DNA of 64,000 nt, taken from NCBI GenBank assembly GCA_964016885.1, contig OZ024741.1, positions 381,610,001 through 381,674,000 on the forward strand, in the 5' to 3' direction. Source of the DNA: Eledone cirrhosa (lineage: Eukaryota). A model generated the notes under the pieces. It did no database searches and had not been told where the DNA came from. It saw only the letters and a list, made by a program, of their open reading frames with translations. The position numbers and the translations under genes were made by a program. Below, one piece after another: positions 1,575-62,879 of this stretch (positions are counted from its first letter, which is position 1; the number at the start of each line of letters is the position of its first letter).

Positions 1575-1913
1575 ATAAATACAAGTTGTTATTGATATTC
1601 GTTTTGAGATATTTGTCATGCTTCAATTATTACTTCGAATATAGAGAGATCATTCTAACCAAATTAAATTAGTGGTTGGCATGCAGTAGTACTTACTGGA
1701 GTAAATAACCCTATGACCAATTCACTAAAACTTGAAGAGATGCGAAAGTAGGCATTGAGTACTTCCGTTTTGACTTCTCTTTTAATAATATCTAAGTTTA
1801 TATCTTCATAATTTGTATGACAGTCGAGAAATCTAGATTCAACTTACAAACAATTTTTATTGTATATGTATATTATTTGACTCGGGTGATAATGTCTTAT
1901 TATTTCCCTTGAT

Positions 1914-2420
1914 CAAGGGTGTTGGATTGAGAGTACAGGTAGAGTATCGGACAGAATGCTTTGTGGAACGTATTTATGGCTCTTTACGATCTAAGTTAAT
2001 GGAGGCCTCTGGCCTTGCGGTAAGTGTGTTGGACCTATGATCATAATGACGTGATATCGATACTTGGCATGGGTTTGTGTGTCTTGTTCTTGTGCAAAAC
2101 ACGTCATTTCAGACTGATCCAACATACTCAGCTGAAAATGAATACCATAAATAATTGGGGGTTTAACCCTGCGAATGACAGACGTCGAAGCGAAAGACTC
2201 ATACTTTGAGTCACTTCACGCTGCGGAAACTAGAATAAGCACCGGCCTGAGGAGCCTACTGGCTCGAGACAGACTTTAGAGTTCAGATGCTCAAACTCTG
2301 CCGAGGATAGCTTTCATTTCCATCCTTACGTGGTCATTAAAAGGGTCCTTAATATTCATTTAATTGGCATCCCCCTTCTCTTTCTAATTGCTGGCCTTGT
2401 GCCAGAAGTAGAAGTAATTA
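1914..2420 (+). mobile_element. Old tRNA-derived SINE (family A) split by a second SINE at about 2000-2275
   Basis: Head GGGTGTTGGATTGAGAGTACAGGTAGAG, middle GCCGAGG...CATCCTTACG and tail GCTGGCCTTGTGCCAGAAGTAGAA all resemble the family A copies elsewhere in the window; an unrelated tRNA-like sequence lies between them. Confidence 0.55.
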
Positions 2421-2461
2421 TCTCTTTTAACAATTATATATATATATATATATATATATAT

Positions 2462-3398
2462 CACACCTACCCATCCTCGCCACTTTACCATTCCACCGAC
2501 TGCTGCTATGCCCTCTGACCACCTCCCAGTACAAACAGACACACAGCACTCCCACTGCTTGACCACTTGCTGTTGCGCGCGCACCCCACATCTCTCCTCT
2601 TCCGACCATCGCTTCATGGAATACTCGCACGTAGAAATTGACCACCACAGAATCCACTAAACACCATTGGATTTTACCAACTTTTCAACCATCCTCTTAC
2701 GTAATCACCAATATAACTCACCTACACACACACCCCAAAAATATTTTTTTCTCCACACGCCACCTACACCCAAAAAACGCTTAAACACGTGCTTTCCACC
2801 ACATATTTACACCCTCAGCCTCCTGATTCCTCTCCCCCCACCCCTCTATCCACACACGCACAGACACTCCGACCCACAAACCCTCCCCACACACACCTCT
2901 TCCTGAACATGCAACCCCGTTCTTCCCCCAACCCTTACTTTCACATACACACACACACACACACACACACGTACACCTACACACACACAACACTTTCAGC
3001 CCTCCCCGCTCGGACAACCCGTCTCCCTCTCCCCACTCCACCCGCCACCACCCCTACACACCCCACACTCTTCCACCACCTGTTTTACCCCCCTTTTAAT
3101 TTCAGTTTATTTTGATCATGCTTTTATATTTAAATTTATTTCATTCCTTGTATTTTGATCATGCTTTATTTTTATTTTTATTTTTTATTTTTTTCATTCG
3201 CACCGTTTCCTTTCGCTATATGTCTCTCCACCACTCCCCTACACACCCTTTGAACTCTGTTCCCACACACTTCTCACCTGAGGAAGGGCTTGTGCCCGAA
3301 ACGTCGTCCCCCACCAACACCCCACTCTCCAGAGCGTGAAATTAATAAACATTCGTTGTACTGCCTCTCTGTTTTGTTCCTGTTCAAATTTTTCCATT
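2462..3398 (+). mobile_element. Penelope-like element 3' UTR/pLTR remnant
   Basis: Pyrimidine-rich tract, HHR motif at 3278, AATAAA and then (TA)n. The pLTR matches 49600-49790. Confidence 0.55.
3271..3310 (+). ncRNA. Minimal type I hammerhead ribozyme motif
   Basis: CTGAGGA-A-GGGC TTGT GCCC-GAAAC-GTC with palindromic ACGT stem III; helix I is weak. Confidence 0.65.
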
Positions 3399-5647: not shown

Positions 5648-6854
5648 ATTTATACAGAGATAGAGAGAATAGATTTTACGTCGACAGTTAAAGTTTCTCA
5701 CTGAAAGAGATGTCGCACGGATATGTATGAGTTAAATTGTTCAGTTTGCTTCAGATATTTTGTGTTGTACAATGTGTTTTTTTTTTATTGGGATTGATTT
5801 TAAGGAAATAAATATATTTTACATGCAGTTTCTAAAGTGTAACTAGATAGCAAACAAAGGGTTAGTGATGACTACATAAAAGAACTCTCGCCCGACAGCA
5901 ACGAAATCAGCCTGAGGTAACGATCGCATGTAACCGGCTAATAATACCTGCTAAATCTCACGACTCTAATCTTCTCTTTAAAAAAGACACACGGTAATGT
6001 ATTTGTGCATTAATCTATGAATAAATGTTAGTCTGGCACTAAACAGCTGTAACAACTCGGCTTAAAAAATAAAATAAACTTCGAGGAATATTTAAAGCAG
6101 CAACTGAAATATATTAAAATGAACCATTAAACAAAAACTGTACACAATGGACACACGAAATGTTTATGAAATATCAAATTTAATGAAGCAAGATATTGAT
6201 TTTCCTATGTTGTTAACATCAAGAAATATTTGATAGAGGAAACAGAGGATCAACTGTTTTCCAACTGTAACCATCCAGTATTTTGTAATTCAACAGTGAT
6301 ATTGTCCAATCTCCACATTCAATTTAGTTACATATGATTTGAGGCAGATTTGACCACTTCATCTAGCTTTACTGTATATATTATATCTCCATTGTTCCAG
6401 AATCCCGAAACATTCCCGTTTGCTTGGTGTCACCTTATTCTTATGGTAAAATGTTAAATAGAATATTTAGTAAGTATTAAGGTGTAAAGATTTTGTGTTA
6501 CCGCTTATACTCACATGTTACCTAGAGTGATAATCCTGTTAAACGCAAAGACAGAAATTAAGTAACTGCTAACATCCAAATTGGATAAAAAAATACGACA
6601 AATAGTTAAGTATAATTAGCAGCAGCAGTTCAATCTTAGCAAAATATATTTGTTGCGTGTTATTTCATTCTTCCGACATAAATAACGATAGTATAAAAGT
6701 ATCTTTAGTTGAGATTCTGTAACTTGTCTGATCTTCCTAAACAGATAACTGATATAAGCTAGAATCATTAGAAAAATATTTTTTTTTTACACGATGAAGT
6801 GGCATTATTGATTTAAGATTCAAATGCATAGCAGCACATCTATTTAAAAATAAT

Positions 6855-7040
6855 TGTTTCTACTTTAGGCACAAGGCCAGCAATTACCCAGTGCATTACT
6901 GGTACTTTATTTTATCGACCCCGTAAGGATGAAAGGCAAAGTCAACCTCGGCGGGATTTGAACTCAGATCGTAAAGGGACGTAACTATGCTGGAAAGCAT
7001 GGCGTCCGACCCTCTACCGATACTGCCAATCTACCGCCCT
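6855..7040 (-). mobile_element. tRNA-derived SINE family A, full length, with 19-bp TSD
   Basis: A box TGGCAGTATCGG and B box GAGTTCAAATCC on the minus strand; ACATCTATTTAAAAATAAT duplicated at 6836-6854 and 7041-7059. Confidence 0.9.
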
Positions 7041-8229
7041 ACATCTATTTAAAAATAATGACATAATTTATCAAATATAGTATGATAAGAGAGTTTGGCT
7101 ATAAAGATATAAAATGAACAGTTCATGGTGTTACGTAGTAGCATGGATTAAATCACAGTCTGTCTATTAGATAATGTTCCTCAAAGATAGGCTACCTCGC
7201 AACAAACAGACTGCGTGTATTCAAAAATGGTTACCGTTTCTAGTCATATATTTGTAAATAGCGATTTCAACTTTAACATCATTAAATGTTGAACATTTTT
7301 CAACGTTAACGACCTATCTAACGTTGGTTCTCGCGAACTTCTTTACCTATATCATACACGTTTCAACAATGCTTCAGTATAACTTAACATTCCAAAAATT
7401 ATTAAGAAAATAGTTTGACCATCAGTAAATATTGAGAAATTTGTCATCGGTAGTAGAATCTGCAGGGTTTTATGATTGAATCTTAGGGGATGGTTCGTCA
7501 CGTACTAATTAAGAACACGCTGCGCGTCAAATTAACGAGTAACTGCTTGGCATTCTATGGACTCGTGACAACTACAATTAATTTTCGACTTGATAAAGCG
7601 TGTGAAAGGATGGAGCATTTGATTCACTGACAGAATTCATTTTGTCCATCTGAGTAAACTGGAAAAAACGGGAAAAGAAGTGTCTTGCTCAAGGAAACGA
7701 ACTCACGAACGAACGTGCATGGCAAGAAAACTCTAACCAGTAAGTCACACTCCTTCACATAAACATACACCTGCATACACTTATAATGAACATTTCTTAA
7801 TAGGATAGACAACCACATACAGGCGAATCAAGAACATGAAAAATCCTGAGCCAGCCGACTTTGAGAGAGCGCCAAATAAGGGCAAGCACCTGTTGTTGAC
7901 GACCTATAAACTACCTATAAACTACTATAAATCATAGTTTAATTAAATCATTGACCCGGTCCCTGTAAGCGCTGCGCACCGGAAACGACATGTTCAGCTT
8001 CCAGAAACTAAGTCCTAAGCTATGTGTCGTATTTAGGTGGACTATGCAGATCACAGTTAAAAGACCTCGCTACTAGAATACGAAGTGTTTGTGTCAGTAA
8101 GTGTTTCTGTGTGTATCTGTGTGTGTGCGCGCGCATGTGTGTGTGTGTGCTTGTTTGTGTCAATGAGTGTCATTTTGGGGGAAGGGTTAATGGGAGAGCT
8201 TTCCTCATTTTCTCCCTGGGTTGGTTTTA

Positions 8230-9050: not shown

Positions 9051-9263
9051 CAGCTGACTGTACGTTTAGGGGCACGCTCTGTCCTTGCTTTCTCTTTTAG
9101 AAAAATATATTTTCAGGAAAATAATGTTTAAATATTTGGGCCCAAACACAACTATTACAGGGCCACATATGGATGAATAGAATGTAAACACTTGAAAATT
9201 AATAAAGCTTACGGAGCAATACTCACATACGTATTGACAGGCAGAAAAAAACAGAGATAATAG

Positions 9264-9460
9264 TGGTTTCTACGTTTGGCACAAGGCCAGTAATTATCCC
9301 AGTGTATTACTGGTACTTCATTTTATCGACCCCGTAAGGATGAAAGGCGTAGTTAACCTCGGCGGGCTTTGAACTCAGAATGGCAAGGGCCGTAATTCTA
9401 CGCGTCAAAGCAGTGCGTCCGACCCTCTACTGATACTGCCAATCCACCGCCAATCCACCG
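9264..9460 (-). mobile_element. tRNA-derived SINE family A
   Basis: Highly similar to 6855-7040; imperfect TSD GAAAAA(A)CA(G/A)AGATAATA. Confidence 0.9.
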
Positions 9461-27634: not shown

Positions 27635-28410
27635 CCTGTAGTATGTATAAATAGTCTCGTTTTTACCGAACATTTATTATAATGCTCGGCTTGTTTGTAA
27701 ACAAACAAACAGCCCGAATTAAGCCGTACAGTCTTTAGCAACCATCGTTGCCCCCCTGCCCAACACTGACAAAGGAACGATGTACTAGTTTCAAGCTTAT
27801 TATCTATTGTCAGCATCGTATACCTTCATGCCAGATGATTTCTGGCTTAATTGGGGCTGTTTGTTTGTTTACAAACAAACCGAGCATTATAATAAATGTT
27901 CTTTAAAAACGATACGTACATATATATGTGTGCATGTATGTATATATATACATACTACTGTACGTCTGTATACATATATGTATGTACGTATACATACTTA
28001 TATTTAAGTAACAGCCGGACTAAGAGTGAGAAATGAAATTTCGTTTCATTTTTTCCATTTATCGTTTTCGGTGCGCCCAGCCGTCTAACTCACTCGATAT
28101 ACAAATTAGGCTACTCAGCCGTTAATATGCATAAGGAATGTACATACTTTCAGACGTTCAATCATCTGGCAGGAAGGTATACGATGCTGACGATAGCTAA
28201 TAAGCTTGAAACTAGTATATCGTTCCTTTGTCAGTGTTGGGCAGGGTGGCAACGATGATTGCTAAACTCTGTACGACTTAATTCGGGCTGTTTGTTTGTT
28301 TACAAACAAACCGAGCATTATAATAAATGTTCGGTAAAAACGATACTATGTATACATACTACTGTACGTCTGTATACATATATGTATGTACGTATACATA
28401 CTTATATATC
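27635..28410 (+). mobile_element. HHR-containing tandem repeat (retrozyme-like), locus 1: inverted 5' fragment plus about 1.3 monomers of 431 bp
   Basis: Period 27846 to 28277; inverted copy at 27635-27835; same family as 46120-47330. Confidence 0.85.
28181..28223 (+). ncRNA. Type I minimal hammerhead ribozyme, intact core
   Basis: Helix I ACGATG/TATCGT, CTGACGA, stem II AGCT-AATA-AGCT, GAAA, palindromic ACTAGT, GUA cleavage triplet. Confidence 0.9.
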
Positions 28411-28857
28411 TCTATATATATATGTAGTTTTTGGCCACCTCCGAAATACGATCTCGCTGAAATTATATTTGTATTAATCTCCCGGGCCTAGCAATTAATT
28501 AGTTAATTCTATTAGACAATTGCTTAAGTTTCTTTAAAAACATCCCGGTCGATAGCTTACTTCGATTTGTGCAGTTTTTTGCAATTCTTGCAATGATTTT
28601 ACACGTTTTGAATGCATCCGTCAAAAACCGGGGTTACCTCCCTCGCAGGGTAAACACCAGTTTACTACTGGTCGTCTGAGAACCAAATGGCAGCCTTGTT
28701 CGATTGTTATGCGAAAAGCTTACGAGAAATGCAAGCAGTATAATTGATTTTGATGTCACAGAAACCTCCCACTGGATTCTACCATCAATTTCCAGGAGTT
28801 CCAGGTAAATTCTTTTGTTAACCTGTTTAGCTTGCTTCGTTTTGGGGGCGAAATACA

Positions 28858-37696: not shown

Positions 37697-38970
37697 TAAA
37701 TTTCTTTAAGTCGTTTGGAAGCCTCGACAATGCAGATGGGTAAATCTCCGGGTAACAAGATCCGGTGGTGGAGAGAGAGATGTAAGTGGGTGTACGTTGA
37801 GATGCGTGGCGTGTATAAGACTGTAACGTTTAGAGGAATGAAGGAAAGAACGTAAAGCATGAAAATAAAAATAACAACACGAGAAAGAGTTACCTTGGGA
37901 GAGATTTAATTGTCCCTATATATTTCGGATACACATCCATCAACTGGATTTTTCCCGGGGGTGGGGGTGGGGAAGGTTGTTTGTCGGAAAGGTGCGAAAC
38001 GTGTCCGCCGCTGTTCGCTGTTTTGAATATCTGAGGTATTCAGCAGAGCGCGCGTGCGCGTGAAATGGGGTCGGTCAAACAGAGGTCAGCGATCGAAGTA
38101 GTTCTTTCAATTGTGGGAATGGGGTGGCGCTAGCTGTCACGCCATTATCTGCCTGTTTTCCAACCTTGTCTAAAATCTGTGGCAAACTCCCTCGAGCCTC
38201 TGCCCTTCTAAAATCCCGGAGAGCTCAATTTGCTGGCCACTGTCACCGTGCCAGCAATGAAATCATATCCGCTCTCTTGCTCTGGAACCCTGACTCCAGC
38301 CTGACCAGGAGTAGGAAGCTGTCATTCCCTGACGTTATGTCTAGGGATACGGGAATCAGTAGACAGGACCTGGGGGCAGCGATGGGGGACGGGGAATTCT
38401 GGGGCATAAGAGTGAGATCCATCATCTCGACAGTAGTCGACGAATGATGATGATGATGTTCGTATGGTGGAATGCTACTGTGTGTGTGTGTGCGCGCGTG
38501 TGTTGCTATATCGCTTGTGTGTGTGTACATGTGTTGCTGCATCGCTTCTGTGTGTGTGTGCGCGTGTTGCTGCATCGTTGGTTAACTTAAACCAACCACC
38601 TCATTTCGCTTCTCTGGGATCGGTTGTTTAGTTGTCGCCCTAGGCGTTTGATCCAAAGTGCTTCCGTGATAAGTAACGTGTCGACGTTTCTTTCTGTCGC
38701 TAGAATTGTGACAATGGGCCTTCGGGCTTTGTTTCCGCATTTGGCTACGTGTTTCCGGAAAGACGAGACCCTGGTTTTAGTGTGTTCCTTGATCCGGATG
38801 TGCAACGGCCGGATTGTGCTACTTATATAGTATTGGTTGCACTTGTTACATTCTATCTTTTACATGACATATGTGCGTAGGCAACAGTTCGCATGACGCA
38901 TCGGACAGTCTCTGATGGAGCACGCGTCAGTTGATTTACCGGGTTTCCTGGAGAGGCATCTTCGCAGGGA
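37697..38970 (-). mobile_element. Inverted copy of the PLE EN domain and 3' UTR
   Basis: Diverged reverse complement of 39979-41006. Confidence 0.9.
38160..38458 (+). mobile_element. RTE-type LINE 3' fragment with (TGA)n tail, inserted in the inverted PLE arm
   Basis: RRAQFAGHCHR...LLWNP...GAAMGDGEFW; absent from the right arm. Confidence 0.8.
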
Positions 38971-41006
38971 TTGAGGCCCATTGTATCGAGCGTGGAAGGA
39001 CCACTCTACAAAATTTCATAGCTCCTAGCCCGAATACTCCAACCCATCTTAGACACCTTGCCGGGACACGTTAACAGCTGCGAGGAGGTGTTGAAGCGCC
39101 TGCATCAAATGGATCCCGACACCAGAAAGAATCACAGATATGCCTTCAACCTTGATGTAGTCGCTCTCTACACCTCGGTCCCGGCACTCCCGGCCGTCAA
39201 TATACTGATGAAACGCGTCCAATCCATCGACCTACACTGCTTCGGGCTCACCACCACTGACATCCACCAACTCCTATCCATCGTCGTCAACAACCCTTGC
39301 TTCGGATTCCTTGACCAAACATACCAACAAACCTCGGGACTGCCCATGGGATCAAGACTGTCGGGTGTAATAGCGATCTCTTACATGGACAGCCTCGAGC
39401 ACAAGGCACTCAACGCCTGCCACCCCAACGCCGCCGCCTTTTTCTCAAGGTACGTGGACGATATCCTAATCCTCACATCATCCCAAGACATTGCGAACAG
39501 AATCTATGAGACGTTCAACGACACGGACGAAAACATTGAATTCAGTGTTGAACACCCCAACGACGACGGGTTACTTGCCCTCCTCGACTTCCGAATCAAC
39601 ATCACGGAACAGGGAGGGAACCACTGAAACTACTACCGAGAGGCAGCCTGCAGGGACCTGTTCCTCCACTACAAGTACGCCCTTCCTAACAGTGCCAAAC
39701 GAGGATACATCACGAACAAGATCGCGCGAATCAAAAACAGATGCAGCGATCCCGCGAGTTGTGTCACACATACCAAGCGATTCCTCGAGGTGCTGCAGAC
39801 GAACAGGTACCCTACCTCGCTCACAGACAGAGTAGGAGCCACCAGACACAAGAGACAGAGAGGCAGCCAAGGCAAGTGATTCCTTAAAATGCCACACCTG
39901 GTCGAGAATACCACCAACGCTATCCGCAAGGCTATACGGTGGGAGGGCCTCGACATCCACCTGGCCCACTCGGGCCCCTCCCTGCGAAGATGCATCTCCA
40001 GGAAACCCGGGAAATCAACTGACGCGTGCTCTTTCAGAGACTGCCCGATGCGCCATGCGAACTGTTGCCTACGCACATACGTCTTTTATAAGATAGAATG
40101 TAACAAGTGCAACCAATACTATATAGGTAACACAACCCGGGCGTTGCATATTCGGATCAAGGAACACTAAAACCAAGGGTCGTATTTCCGGTAACACATA
40201 GCCAAATGCCGAAAGACGGAAGGCCCATTGTCACAATTCTTGCGACAGAAAGGAACGTCGACACGTTACGTATCAAGGAAGCACTTTGGATCAAACGCCT
40301 AGGGCCACAACTAAACAACCGATTCGAGAGAAGCGAAATGAGGTGGTTGGTTTAAGTTAACCAACGATGCAGCAATACACGCACACACACACACACAAGC
40401 GATGCAGCAACACACACACACACACCCACACACAGTATTATTCCACCATACGAACATACTACACTGCCAATACAGAGGAACAAGGCAATAACACACGAAC
40501 ACACACACACACTCAAGCGAGACAACAACACACGTACACACACAGTAACATTCACCAAACAGGCAGATAATGGACTGACAGCTAGCGCCACCCCACTCCC
40601 AGAATTGAAAGAACTACTTCGGCCGCTGACCTCTGCCTGACCGACCCCATTTCACGCGCACGCGCGCTCTGCTGAATACCTCAGATATTCAAAACAACGA
40701 ACAGCGGAGGACACGTTTCGCCCCTTTCCGACAGACAACCTTCCCCCCACCCCTGCCCGGGAAAAAGCCCCCAGTTGATGGATGTGAATCAGAAATATAT
40801 AAGGACAAGGTTACTCTTTCTCGTGTTGGTATTTTTATTTTTATCCTTTACGTTCTTTCCTTTATTCCTCTACACGTTACAGTATTATACACGCCACGCA
40901 TCTCAACGTACACCCACTTACATCTCTCTCTCCACCACCGGATCTTGTTACCCGGGGATTTACCCCTCTGCATTGTCGAGGCTTCCAAACGACTTAAAGA
41001 AATTTA
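38971..41006 (+). mobile_element. 5'-truncated Penelope/Poseidon-type PLE (RT plus GIY-YIG), with stops and frameshifts
   Basis: LRPIVSS, NLDVVALYTSVP, QTSGLPMGSRLS, RYVDD, LLDF; YKIECNKCNQYYIGNTTRALHIRIKEH. Confidence 0.92.
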
Positions 41007-44940: not shown

Positions 44941-45188
44941 ACTTTATACTCCAAGATTGAACGGAATTCTTACAAACTTGTGGAGTTACCCCTAACCGTA
45001 CGTTGAAACCATCCATGAAACTGGCTTTCTTAACTAAAAACTGGATCACAATAAGTAATGTGTTGCTTCTCTAACTATATATATATATATATATATATGG
45101 AGAGTTATATTAAAAATTGTTGGGTTACAACTAGTAAATATTTATAACTGATATAAAAGCACTCAACAAGTATTTGGAGTATATTTAC

Positions 45189-45550
45189 GATATTAAATAA
45201 ATGGAAACTATATTTATAAAACCATATTTATTTCATTATATATATTTCAGGGATATCATATTAACAATATGTTATGCCTTCCTCAGACAAAATACAATAT
45301 AGACAGTTTTATAGATAAATAGATTTGACATACCGTTCAACATCGACTTGCATTTGAAAAAGTTGATTTGGCAAATGAACCTTTTCAAATACAAGTCGAT
45401 GTTGAACGGTATGTCAAATCTATTTATCTATAAAACTGTCTATATTGTATTTTGTCTGAGGAAGGCATAACATATTGTTAATATGATATCCCTGAAATAT
45501 ATATAATGAAATAAATATGGTTTTATAAATATAGTTTCCATTTATTTAAT

Positions 45551-45553
<3 letters not shown>
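45189..45553. repeat. 365-bp near-perfect palindrome with an HHR on each strand
   Basis: Arms of about 180 bp; CTGAGGA at 45456 and GAAA-TATATA at 45494 on plus, with the mirror image on minus. Confidence 0.9.
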
Positions 45554-45616
<63 letters not shown>

Positions 45617-46119
45617 GACAAACAGAAAGAGAGACCAAGAGATAAGGATAAGGAAAATTGATAAAGAGAGAGGTGGAAAGAGTAAATAGAGTTAGTGAAG
45701 GGGAGCTCAATCTGAAAAATGGTTCATTTGATTTTGTTTATTATTTTGGTGTATATTTTTACGCATTTCTCATCGTATGACAAAAAAGCTGATTAAACTG
45801 GTCTGAAGTGATATATAAAACTATACATTGAAATAATATTTGTAAGACGAAATTGAGTTTATTAGAATCAAAGTGAAATACCATGTGTAAACCTTGTCTT
45901 TCTGAGACTTTTAAATCAATCACCGTCCATTACAATAGAGATTATTATTCAGCAAGGTACAATATCTGGATATTAATTATATAGTTAGAGTCACTATAAA
46001 GTACAGTTCCCTCTCAAACTATAGGATGCTGTTAGCATAAGAATATATTTGCATTATTGTTTGCATACACACACACGTATATATATATATATATATAAAT
46101 GTATTACATATATATATAT

Positions 46120-47321
46120 TAATGGAAAAAATGAAATTTCATTTCTCACTCTTAGTACGGCTGATACTTAAATATAAGTATGTATACGTACATACATATA
46201 TGTATACAGACGTACAGTAGTATGTATATACATACATACATGCACACACATATATATATATATATGTACGTATGGGTTTATCGAACATTTATTATACAAA
46301 CAACCCGAATTAAGCCGTACAGTGTTCAGCAACCTTCATTGCACTTTTGTTCAACACTGACAAACCGTTAATATGCATAAGGAAAGTATATACATTCAAA
46401 CGTTCAATTGATTGAAAGGAAGGTTTACGGTGCTGATGACAGCTAATAAGCTAGAAACTAGTACACACATATACGTCTGTATACATGTATGTGTATGTAC
46501 GTATACATACTTATATTTAAGTATCAGTCGTACTAAGAGTGAGAAATTAAATTTCATTTTTTCCCTTTATCGTTTTCGGTACGCCCGGCCGACTAACTCA
46601 CTCAATATGCAAACGTTCAATCTATTGAAAGGAAGGTATACGGTGCTGATGGCAGCTAATAAACTAGAAACTAGTTCATCGTTCCTTTGTCAGTGTTGAA
46701 CAAAAAGGGCAACGATGGTTGCCAAACATTCTACGGCTTAATTCAGGCTGTTTGTTTACAAACAAACCGAACATTAAAATAAAAGTTCGATGAACACATA
46801 CGTATATATATATATATATATGTATATGTGTGTATGTATGTATTTACATACAACTGTACGTCTGTATACATGTATGTGTGTACGTATACATACTTATATT
46901 TAAGTATCAGCCGTACTAAGAGTGAGAAATTAAATTTCAGTTTTTCCGTTTATCGTTTTCGGTACGCCCGGCCGACTAACTCATCCGACGTGCAAATTAG
47001 GCTGCTCAGCCGTTAATATGCATAAGGAAAGTATATACTTTCAAACATTCAATCGATTGACAGGAAGGTATACGGTGCTGACGACAGCTAATAAGCTAGA
47101 AACTATTTCATCGTTCCTTTGCTAGTGTTGAACAAAACAGCAACGTTGTTTGCCGAACACTGTACTGCTTAATTCGGGCTGTTTGTTTACAAACAAACCG
47201 AACATTATAATAAATGTTCGGTAAACCCATACGTACGTATATATATGTATATGTGTGCATGTATGTATGTATACAAATACTACTGTACGTCTGCATACAT
47301 GTATGTATGTACGTATACATA

Positions 47322-47330
<9 letters not shown>
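46120..47330 (+). mobile_element. HHR-containing tandem repeat (retrozyme-like), locus 2: inverted fragment plus three HHR units
   Basis: Cores at 46433 (CTGATGA), 46646 (CTGATGG) and 47078 (CTGACGA); full period 432 bp; inverted fragment at 46120-46363. Confidence 0.85.
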
Positions 47331-47380
<50 letters not shown>

Positions 47381-47384
<4 letters not shown>

Positions 47385-47935
47385 GCTCCACATGGCTGAA
47401 TACAATAAATGTAATCTGAGTTTTTCGAATATTAATTATAATATTCGATTTGTTTGCAATTATGCATACAAGCCTCATCTTTAAAGCCATGTCAGCAGAA
47501 TGAACCCCTCATTCTTGCTCTTGTGTTGGCATGTAAACTGAACTGAAGACACTAATGTTTCTGGGTGTGATCCTTCATCAGTACAGTTCACTTTTCACCT
47601 GCCAACTGTTAAAGCTAGTAAAAATATATATTCTCTAAAATATAGAGTGACATATCGGCCTGATTTGCATATTAGCACACAGGCTAATCAGTCAGATCTG
47701 CATATTATCAGATCCACTGATCACCCAGATTTGCATATCAGCCGACTGGCCATTCAGTTTCCTGTATACGAGCGATCAATGTCGGGCTTGGTCATGAACA
47801 AGAATTAGGAGGTCATTCTACTGACATGGCTTTAAAAATGAGCCTTGTTTGCATAATTGCAAACGGAACGAATATTATTATTAATATTCGAAAATCTCAG
47901 ATTACATTTATTGTATTCAGCCATGTAGAGTGAAT
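47381..47935 (-). mobile_element. Small element with ~125-bp inverted ends, an internal HHR and an octamer cluster
   Basis: 47381-47508 is the inverse of 47808-47935; ATTTGCAT at 47663 and 47729; ATCTGCAT at 47696. Confidence 0.75.
47540..47589 (-). ncRNA. Type I hammerhead ribozyme
   Basis: GAACTGTA-CTGATGA-AGGATCACACCCA-GAAACA-TTAG-TGTC-TTCAGTTC; helix I 7 of 8 bp, GUC triplet, short stem II. Confidence 0.7.
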
Positions 47936-52786: not shown

Positions 52787-52848
52787 GAGAGAGAGATAGA
52801 GATAGAGCGAGAGAGAGATATGTATGTATGTGCATTTATATATTATAA

Positions 52849-53037
52849 TTGTTTCTACTTTTGGCACAAGGCCAGCAAATACCCAGTGTATTACTGATAC
52901 TTTATTTTATCAACCCCGTAAGGATGAAAGGCAAAGTTAACCTCGGCGGGATTTAAACTCAGAATGGCAAGGGCCGTAACTCTCTACGTCAAAGCATGGC
53001 GCCCGAGCCTCTACCGATACTTCCAATCCACCGCCCT
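52849..53037 (-). mobile_element. tRNA-derived SINE family A
   Basis: Highly similar to the other family A copies. Confidence 0.9.
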
Positions 53038-53574
53038 TATATATTTATATATTATAATATTATTTGTTTATCTAATTGTAAACATATTTTTGCGCACGGA
53101 TTTGTGAGTATATCTTTTCATTTTTTGGTACCCCCTTTTTATACTCCTACCTGCTTTGTGCCAACAATTCCATATAATATCAAATCATACTTTATTATGT
53201 ATAACATATATTCTTAAGTCTCCCACTTTAATTTCCATTTCAGCATTGTGCAGAAACAATTTGCATAGGAATAATAAATAACTCCTGTAATTAATGTATT
53301 GGTTTCATTCCTACTTGTGATTTTAACCAACTGAATATTTCCTAGAATATTCTGAATGTCTCAAACGGACGTTACGGGGTTTTCCTCCCTGTTGTCTTTG
53401 ATACGTTACACCATTTAATTGATATCACCGAAGCCGGATGTTAAGAAATTCACATGCACTGGAACGATTAACAGGTTTTCAGAATTACATACACATATAA
53501 ACATGACAACACCCACACATAACAACCCACAAACACTCAAACACACGCGGATACATGTACGCACACCCGTACAT

Positions 53575-57620: not shown

Positions 57621-57663
57621 ATATATATTTATATCTGTATTTTCAACCGTTGGTCAATCAATG

Positions 57664-57851
57664 ATTGTTTCTACTTTAGGCACAAGGCCAGCAATTACCC
57701 AGTGCATTACTGGTACTTTACTTTATCGACCCCGTAAGGATGAAAGGCAAAGTCAACCTCGGCGGGATTTGAACTCAGATCGTAAAGGGACGTAACTATG
57801 CTGGAAAGCATGGCGTCCTACCCTCTACCGATACTGCCAATCCACCACCCT
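57664..57851 (-). mobile_element. tRNA-derived SINE family A
   Basis: Nearly identical to 6855-7040. Confidence 0.9.
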
Positions 57852-57918
57852 TTGTATATAACATTATTCTTTCTGCACCTTCTGTTTAACATGTGCGACA
57901 CCACATTAATACATTTCA

Positions 57919-62682: not shown

Positions 62683-62860
62683 TTGACAGTATCGGTAGAG
62701 GGTCGGACGCCATGATTTGATGCATAGAGTTACGGCCCTTCCCAATCTGAGTTTAAATCCCGCCGAGGTTAACTTTGCCGTTCATCCTTACGGGGTCGAT
62801 AAAATAAAGTACCAGTAATGCACTGGATAATTGCTTGCCTTGTGCCAAAAGTAGCAACAA
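62683..62860 (+). mobile_element. tRNA-derived SINE family A (sense orientation)
   Basis: CAGTATCGGTAGAGGGTCGGACGCC...GAGTTTAAATCC...TGTGCCAAAAGTAG followed by (TTA)n. Confidence 0.9.
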
Positions 62861-62879
62861 GTATTATTATTATTATTGG

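Follow-up and report, generated by a model that had tools for sequence, protein, structure and literature searches.

Newt satellite 2, in the 1994 work of Coats, Zhang and Epstein, reportedly combines an octamer with a PSE and starts its transcripts at the base of the hammerhead. Newt satellite II is described, in the accessible part of the published account, as having an snRNA promoter that is used by Pol II (PMC2220036). Animal non-LTR retrozymes are short tandem repeats with type I hammerheads whose helix III is short or palindromic; they number tens of thousands of copies, are found alongside Penelope-like elements, and are heavily transcribed in most tissues, with the driver of this transcription left unstated in the accessible sections of the paper (Cervera and de la Pena, 2020, PMC7229834). 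Penelope-like insertions, so far as the accessible text of their description goes, show partial tandems and inverted, 5'-truncated copies (Craig et al., 2021, PMC8557442). A search of the open literature, with subscription papers falling outside its coverage, found no report of octamer/PSE promoters in invertebrate retrozymes.

The window, by which we mean the whole 64,000-nt stretch of DNA analysed here, holds repeats in which an octamer stands upstream of a hammerhead. These repeats are likely to be non-autonomous non-LTR retrozymes and, as reported for newt satellite 2, are likely to carry a promoter of their own.

Hammerhead repeats in the window and their genomic copies

An earlier note on this DNA had placed an octamer 88–89 nt upstream of the hammerhead core in two repeat families, here called A and B, and all of the motifs that it cited were found at their coordinates. 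In the element at 47381-47935, ATGCAAATCAGGC starts at 47670 on the minus strand and CTGATGA at 47581, 89 nt apart, and two extra octamer-like sites lie farther upstream on the same strand, at 47703 (ATGCAGAT) and 47736 (ATGCAAAT). In family B, ATACAAATTAGGC at 28099 precedes a core at 28187 and GTGCAAATTAGGC at 46990 a core at 47078, by 88 nt in both cases. What had been counted as a third variant, ATGCAAAC at 46607, is the junction of an internal deletion of about 49 nt, lying 39 nt before a degenerate core, and thus no independent variant. The features of the two families are as follows.

47381..47795, minus strand: family A unit, a likely retrozyme, whose 3' end enters a (TA)n tract
47793..47935, plus strand: 3' part of family A as an inverted truncated copy, of the kind found in Penelope-like insertions
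47729..47736, minus strand: distal octamer, in one of three repeated modules of about 33 nt made of octamer and GATCAG
47696..47703, minus strand: middle octamer-like site ATGCAGAT
47663..47670, minus strand: proximal octamer ATGCAAAT in the context TATGCAAATNAG, as at host U6 genes; predicted position -70
47650..47654, minus strand: PSE-like box at octamer+16, predicted position -54; family state TCAGT, decayed to TATGT in this copy
47625..47630, minus strand: TATA box within a small palindrome; predicted position -30
47600, minus strand: predicted transcription start, the A of TGGC^AGG, placed by host spacing
47526..47605, minus strand: type I hammerhead fold, partly decayed, with long stem I, core at 47581-47575, A.A at the base of stem II, 3-bp stem III and GUC triplet; predicted cut after 47548
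27638..27840, minus strand: inverted truncated family B copy, upstream of the 28099 unit
27844..28426, plus strand: family B copy with octamer 28099, TCAGC 28115, decayed TATA 28141, predicted start 28171, core 28187, palindromic stem III ACUAGU and predicted cut after 28217
46118..46364, minus strand: inverted truncated family B copy heading the tandem at 46.4-47.3 kb
46365..46899, plus strand: two more head-to-tail family B units, partly deleted, with cores 46433 and 46646 and the deletion junction 46607
46900..47331, plus strand: family B unit with octamer 46990, TCAGC 47006, TATA 47032, predicted start 47062 and core 47078; stem III mutated

The tandem period of family A is 434 nt (locus L002), and the apparent terminal inverted repeats of the 47381-47935 element arise because an inverted truncated family A copy adjoins the unit. 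A reading of the repeats as MITEs was rejected: the arms differ in length from copy to copy, some copies have none, and the units are tandem, so that there are no fixed terminal inverted repeats.

Genome copies came from an animal assembly of 3.0 Gb, where a first look yielded over 2,000 candidates per family; for families A and B, 30 loci each were collected by DNA similarity, window copies included. Four of the family B loci, near-identical and 9–12 kb apart within G000:C3:34887499-34920133 (L034-L036, L040), probably stem from one local tandem duplication. The hammerhead core is intact, with CUGANGA, GAAA and NUH in three-stem topology, at 26/30 family A and 27/30 family B loci. Among these copies, stem I keeps at least five of six pairs in 23/26 A and 27/27 B, the cleavage triplet is GUC in 23/26 A and GUA in 26/27 B, and the base of stem II is A.A in 26/26 A and U.U in 27/27 B. 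Further families were labelled F1–F4, B2 and G, B2 being a young subfamily of family B. The folds of the representatives are type I hammerheads, most of them with a stem III that is short and palindromic, and cleavage would be expected. There was no Rfam hammerhead match for A or B in the window, nor for the B2, F1, F2 and F4 loci; family G has a match to HH9, whose 37.7 bits fall short of the gathering score (52).

At the DNA level the repeats show the anatomy of non-LTR retrozymes, namely short head-to-tail units (327–502 nt where natural), a hammerhead and no protein. An inverted truncated copy lies upstream at 14/29 A and 16/27 B loci. Copies end 3' at several internal sites rich in A and T, which fits internal initiation of reverse transcription, and the ends meet (TA)4+ in 22/29 A and 25/27 B cases, against 8.6% of random sites. 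Autonomous elements with RT plus GIY-YIG coexist in the genome, one of them within the window, and mobilisation of the retrozymes by Penelope-like elements is likely; among the 63 of 274 long ORFs scanned, none belonged to an autonomous partner sharing the repeats' 3' end.

The Penelope-like element in the window occupies 37697-41006, with its RT at about 39025-39832 and a GIY-YIG part reaching to about 40352; on its left is an inverted truncated copy, and minimal hammerhead motifs, both degenerate, stand at 40775 (plus) and 37943 (minus). At another locus (L269, minus strand, about 1830-3280) an F1-type promoter-hammerhead module, as we read it, is fused directly to a 5'-truncated RT-GIY-YIG element and ends about 15 nt past its predicted cleavage site; this one case may reflect a template switch by a Penelope-like RT, or a chance insertion. 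The window also contains a SINE-like repeat of about 200 nt in five copies, 85–97% alike, at 6849-7069, 9257-9451, 52842-53065, 57660-57867 and 62683-62869.

Octamer-core pairing and the kinship of the families

The octamer is the family-typical state: a perfect ATGCAAAT lies upstream of the core in 25/26 A and 25/27 B intact-core copies, and the three remaining copies have an octamer with one mismatch. Genome-wide, ATGCAAATNAG-N65..95-CTGAHGA occurs 2,151 + 28,138 times (30,289, a count inflated by tandem arrays, from a pattern that does not require GAAA), against 16 + 6 (22) for the reversed control, so the positional enrichment that the earlier note had anticipated is present, and the pairing of octamer and core is far beyond chance. 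Thirty loci from the ATGCAAATNAG-core search were viewed, L218 being put aside as a chance match. An octamer-independent search of a 600-kb random sample gave 12 fragments, and all six that reach the octamer position have a perfect octamer. Octamer followed by core occurs in at least seven families across the genome.

The distance of 88–89 nt is less general than it appeared from the window. Family B keeps it (88 in 27/27), whereas family A ranges from 88 to 95 with a mode of 92 (14/26) and just 6/26 copies at 88–89, and the other families span 86–100; since the core lies nearer or farther according to how long stem I is, 88–89 is no constant. Nor is the module general to all hammerheads, as just 3/15 hammerhead-like clusters in 664 kb carry it, in a scan whose descriptor missed the window families at 3278, 49673 and 57574 and in which some singletons are probably chance. 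The octamer register is absent from the other hammerhead-like families of the window and from all 17 matches of a metagenome scan, one of which has a hammerhead-like fold.

At least four other hammerhead-like families without the register are seen in the window, at 3278, 49673, 57574, 45286/45456 and 48658, and 45180-45562 is a near-perfect 383-nt palindrome made of two opposed copies. A metagenome contig (L253) has a minimal hammerhead-like fold 94 nt after an octamer, with no TCAG register and possibly by chance.

Families A and B had been taken as unrelated. They align, however, outside the promoter-like region and the ribozyme, downstream of the latter (z 5.7, 0/300 shuffles), and F2 bridges them, with z 9.5 to A and 20.5 to B and a stem II in common with A. 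The downstream parts of F1, F3 and F4 are more distant (z -1.1 to 3.7 against A, B and F2). Given the A–B alignment and the F2 bridge, the octamer module is best read as inherited once; with A, B and F2 kin, independent convergence on the octamer is unsupported, and families of shared ancestry are not independent observations. Family G forms an array of 30 units of 466 bp that ends in (TA)n (G000:C1:5738350-5751968); seven measured units are 98.7–99.6% alike, which points to a young array, and this array is the best candidate for an active copy.

The octamer register and host snRNA promoters

Downstream of the octamer, other boxes keep their place while the spacers between them diverge among families. 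Among 14 representatives of seven families, YCA(G/C)Y stands at octamer+16 in 12, a TATA-like box at octamer+40–43 in all 14, and RGY^R at TATA+30/31, within hammerhead stem I, in 12. None of these three motifs belonged to the search pattern; representatives of the F families were chosen by their octamer, so that just the other three motifs are unbiased there. The predicted start lies 16–19 nt before the core in A and B, and stem I reaches 4–15 nt upstream of it. The octamer sequence stays constant while its predicted RNA pairing partners differ among families. The register region folds into hairpins (z -6.2 to +0.5), and both octamer and TATA lie in predicted hairpins; because the same bases form hairpins, RNA structure constrains the register too. 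Runs of at least five T separate the ribozyme from the next putative promoter in 5/7 natural units and are missing in 2/7.

Host matrices were built from 13 non-redundant U1/U2/U4/U5 promoters, near-duplicate copies having been dropped. In each of the 13, a TCAGT-type box lies between -55 and -58 and a TATA-like box between -29 and -34; in having TATA, these Pol II snRNA genes differ from those of vertebrates. An exact octamer within 320 nt was found in 0/23 U1/U2/U4/U5 flanks examined. Three U6 gene types have an extended octamer at -76 to -78 and TATA near -30 without a TCAG box, and U6atac has an octamer with one mismatch at the same place as U6 (13 U6 and 5 U6atac loci were viewed, of which 10 and 4 were set aside because they looked like pseudogenes or were interrupted). 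At two of the U6 loci viewed, an octamer, exact or with one mismatch, lies at -270 or -275. The octamer being found at U6 and U6atac and in none of the 23 U1–U5 flanks, a proximal octamer is a U6-class feature here. The RNase P gene has a TCAGT box.

The host loci (L061-L063, L076-L135, L226, L231) fall into two snRNA promoter classes, U1/U2/U4/U5 also having AATTAA near -88. A distal ATTACCTCCCTTG element is common to host U1, U2, U6 and RNase P.

The host-only PSE+TATA matrix peaks at octamer+16 in 22/26 A, 26/27 B and 16/23 F1 copies. Median scores exceed the 99th percentile of the null (10.7) in A (13.5), F2 (13.3, n=3), F4 (13.1, n=1) and F3 (12.3, n=1), and lie between its 90th and 95th percentiles in B (5.6) and F1 (5.1); the youngest family, G, scores -13.6 at octamer+16. 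None of 32 octamer-less hammerhead matches scored above 10.7, the best reaching 10.4 and 10.0. In line with the scores, a TCAG-type box 24–28 nt before TATA is present in A, F2, F3 and F4, weak in B and F1 and absent from G. The octamer stands upstream of TATA as in the host U6 class, at 40–43 nt in 14/14 representatives against 46–48 nt in U6, that is 5–6 nt shorter.

Two further host elements were sought in the repeats. The distal element (near -260) rose above the null range in 0/7 repeat units; among host promoters it occurs in 11/18, and is missing too from the U4 and U5 promoters scored. Scores for the 3' box had medians of 2.4 in A and -1.0 in B, against a null 95th percentile of 7.8 and 10–26 for host genes. 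Inspection by eye had suggested a 3' box in A and a distal element in F1; neither passed its matrix test.

Set beside the host snRNA genes, the octamer context has a PSE-like box and TATA at host spacing but not the distal element. The common Oct/SNAPc module that had been proposed stands as far as octamer, host-like PSE box and TATA in fixed register are concerned, and falls short in the PSE, weak in B and F1 and absent from G, so that "Oct/SNAPc" is less certain than "octamer plus TATA." Judged by their boxes, the repeats read as a compact hybrid of both host promoter classes and as copies of neither.

A putative internal promoter and its counterparts

We lean, by a little over even chances, toward the octamer-TCAG-TATA register being an internal snRNA-type Pol II promoter of the retrozymes. 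A POU factor would bind the octamer, SNAPc the TCAG box and TBP the TATA box, and Pol II would start at the A of RGY^A, just inside stem I, at 47600 (minus), 28171 (plus) and 47062 (plus). With no 3' box, transcription would continue into the next unit, and a pair of hammerheads, acting as a dimer where stem III is palindromic, would release an RNA of unit length containing the promoter of the next unit, which would mean that every new copy brings a promoter. The excised monomer would circularise, a Penelope-like RT/GIY-YIG protein would insert copies of the circle or multimer at (TA)n tracts, and arrays would arise where the template was copied round more than once. The T runs between ribozyme and next promoter would hinder copying of the promoter through Pol III and so favour Pol II. 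Against this reading stand the weak PSE in B and F1 and its absence from G, the missing distal element, an octamer that none of the U1/U2/U4/U5 flanks shares and that lies nearer to TATA than in U6, the hairpins of the region with a stem I reaching upstream of the predicted start, the two units without T runs, the common ancestry of the families and the Rfam match confined to G and below threshold.

A rival reading is a U6-like (type 3) Pol III promoter, with the T run as a terminator and leaky read-through yielding the multimers that are copied. Among the host genes, U6 and U6atac alone were seen to have a proximal octamer, family G combines octamer and TATA-like box with no PSE match, and in most units T runs of at least five lie at the unit end, 40–150 nt before the next octamer, as would fit a leaky terminator. 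We nevertheless consider Pol III unlikely: the octamer-to-TATA distance is shorter than in U6, U6 has no TCAG box while four families match one well, the predicted +1 is an A in RGY^A context, as in U1, and a terminated RNA would omit the promoter, yet copies and arrays have it. The TCAG box by itself does not fix the polymerase, as RNase P also has a TCAGT box. If SNAPc is left out altogether, an octamer near -70 plus TATA at -30 is enough for promoters of the histone H2B/immunoglobulin type, and the repeats could have such an ordinary Pol II promoter, with YCA at +16 an inherited hairpin-loop motif. The poor PSE scores in B, F1 and G, young arrays included, agree with this, as does the lack of distal element and 3' box. 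It becomes improbable in view of YCA(G/C)Y standing exactly at +16 in 12/14 representatives despite diverging neighbours, and 24–27 nt before TATA, as in U1–U5.

A further account dispenses with a promoter, taking the motifs as inherited RNA-structure or RT-binding signals of one superfamily whose RNA comes from host read-through only. The families are indeed homologous, predicted hairpins hold both octamer and TATA, and host read-through could supply RNA for tens of thousands of dispersed copies. However, the host snRNA flanks have counterparts of four motifs, alike in sequence, order and spacing, pairing does not need an invariant octamer whose partners vary, and the octamer-less Penelope-type hammerheads of the same genome are without the register; we judge this account very improbable.

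RNA run X6 is spliced RNA (a 750-nt contig joins two ribosomal-protein S6 exons, the intron skipped, with no mismatch to the genome) and has 98 contigs on family B, contigs that give no ends, strand or level; one of 122 nt covers octamer to hammerhead and agrees in its letters with the young subfamily B2. The S6 locus also has unrelated repeats with RNA contigs on them, at an RNA-to-DNA depth ratio of about 0.02–0.14 against 0.0003–0.003 for B, figures obtained under different likeness limits and from contig depth, which cannot rank expression. The X6 contigs speak neither for nor against the predicted start site. Runs X1 and X2 have no contigs on family B, which, for contigs only, is no proof of absence.

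If the repeats are driven by an internal snRNA-type promoter, the ribozyme and a tandem or circular template would let them pass on a promoter lying outside the primary transcript, which ordinary SINEs cannot do. They would also provide a large share of the genome's extended POU-binding sites (at least 30,000 against some 45,000, the latter a rough estimate from 9 sites in 600 kb). The radiation of kin families with diverged spacers exposes the conserved boxes, with host snRNA genes at hand for comparison, and allows promoter, start site and cut site to be predicted to the base. An outline of two host snRNA promoter classes, including the U6 promoter, is a by-product.

Among the host genes themselves, U6 and U6atac have the extended octamer in common with the repeats, U1/U2/U4/U5 the TCAG box at about -56, and both groups TATA near -30. 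No host gene examined combines octamer and TCAG box, and the repeats are without the distal ATTACCTCCCTTG element and the 3' box. The repeats resemble Penelope-like elements in partial tandems, inverted 5'-truncated copies, (TA)n bias and a type I hammerhead, as far as these are set out in the accessible parts of the descriptions (PMC8557442; Frangieh et al., 2024, PMC11167929). Unlike those elements, they have no RT/GIY-YIG ORF, and the autonomous elements here have minimal hammerheads without the octamer register.

With the retrozymes of Cervera and de la Pena, on the accessible portion of that paper, the repeats share type I hammerheads, helix III, copy number and coexistence with Penelope-like elements, and the U.U mismatch at the base of helix II in family B is like that of axolotl HHR_Amex2 (PMC7229834). 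In the same portion no internal promoter is described for those retrozymes, and the word 'octopus' is absent from the main text; the present units, of 327–502 nt, are known from DNA. Tentatively, and with more doubt than for the promoter itself, animal non-LTR retrozymes might form a class of mobile RNAs whose transcription depends on snRNA-type upstream promoters that have become internal, with the newt and this invertebrate as two distant examples, the promoter here being a U6/U1–U5 hybrid. The closest counterpart is newt satellite 2, likewise a hammerhead repeat with an internal snRNA-type promoter, described there (PMC2220036, accessible part) and predicted here, and our analysis suggests that the repeats are likely to work as it does. 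They differ from it in having a TATA box too, as in the host snRNA genes, and in having radiated into at least seven families in an invertebrate.
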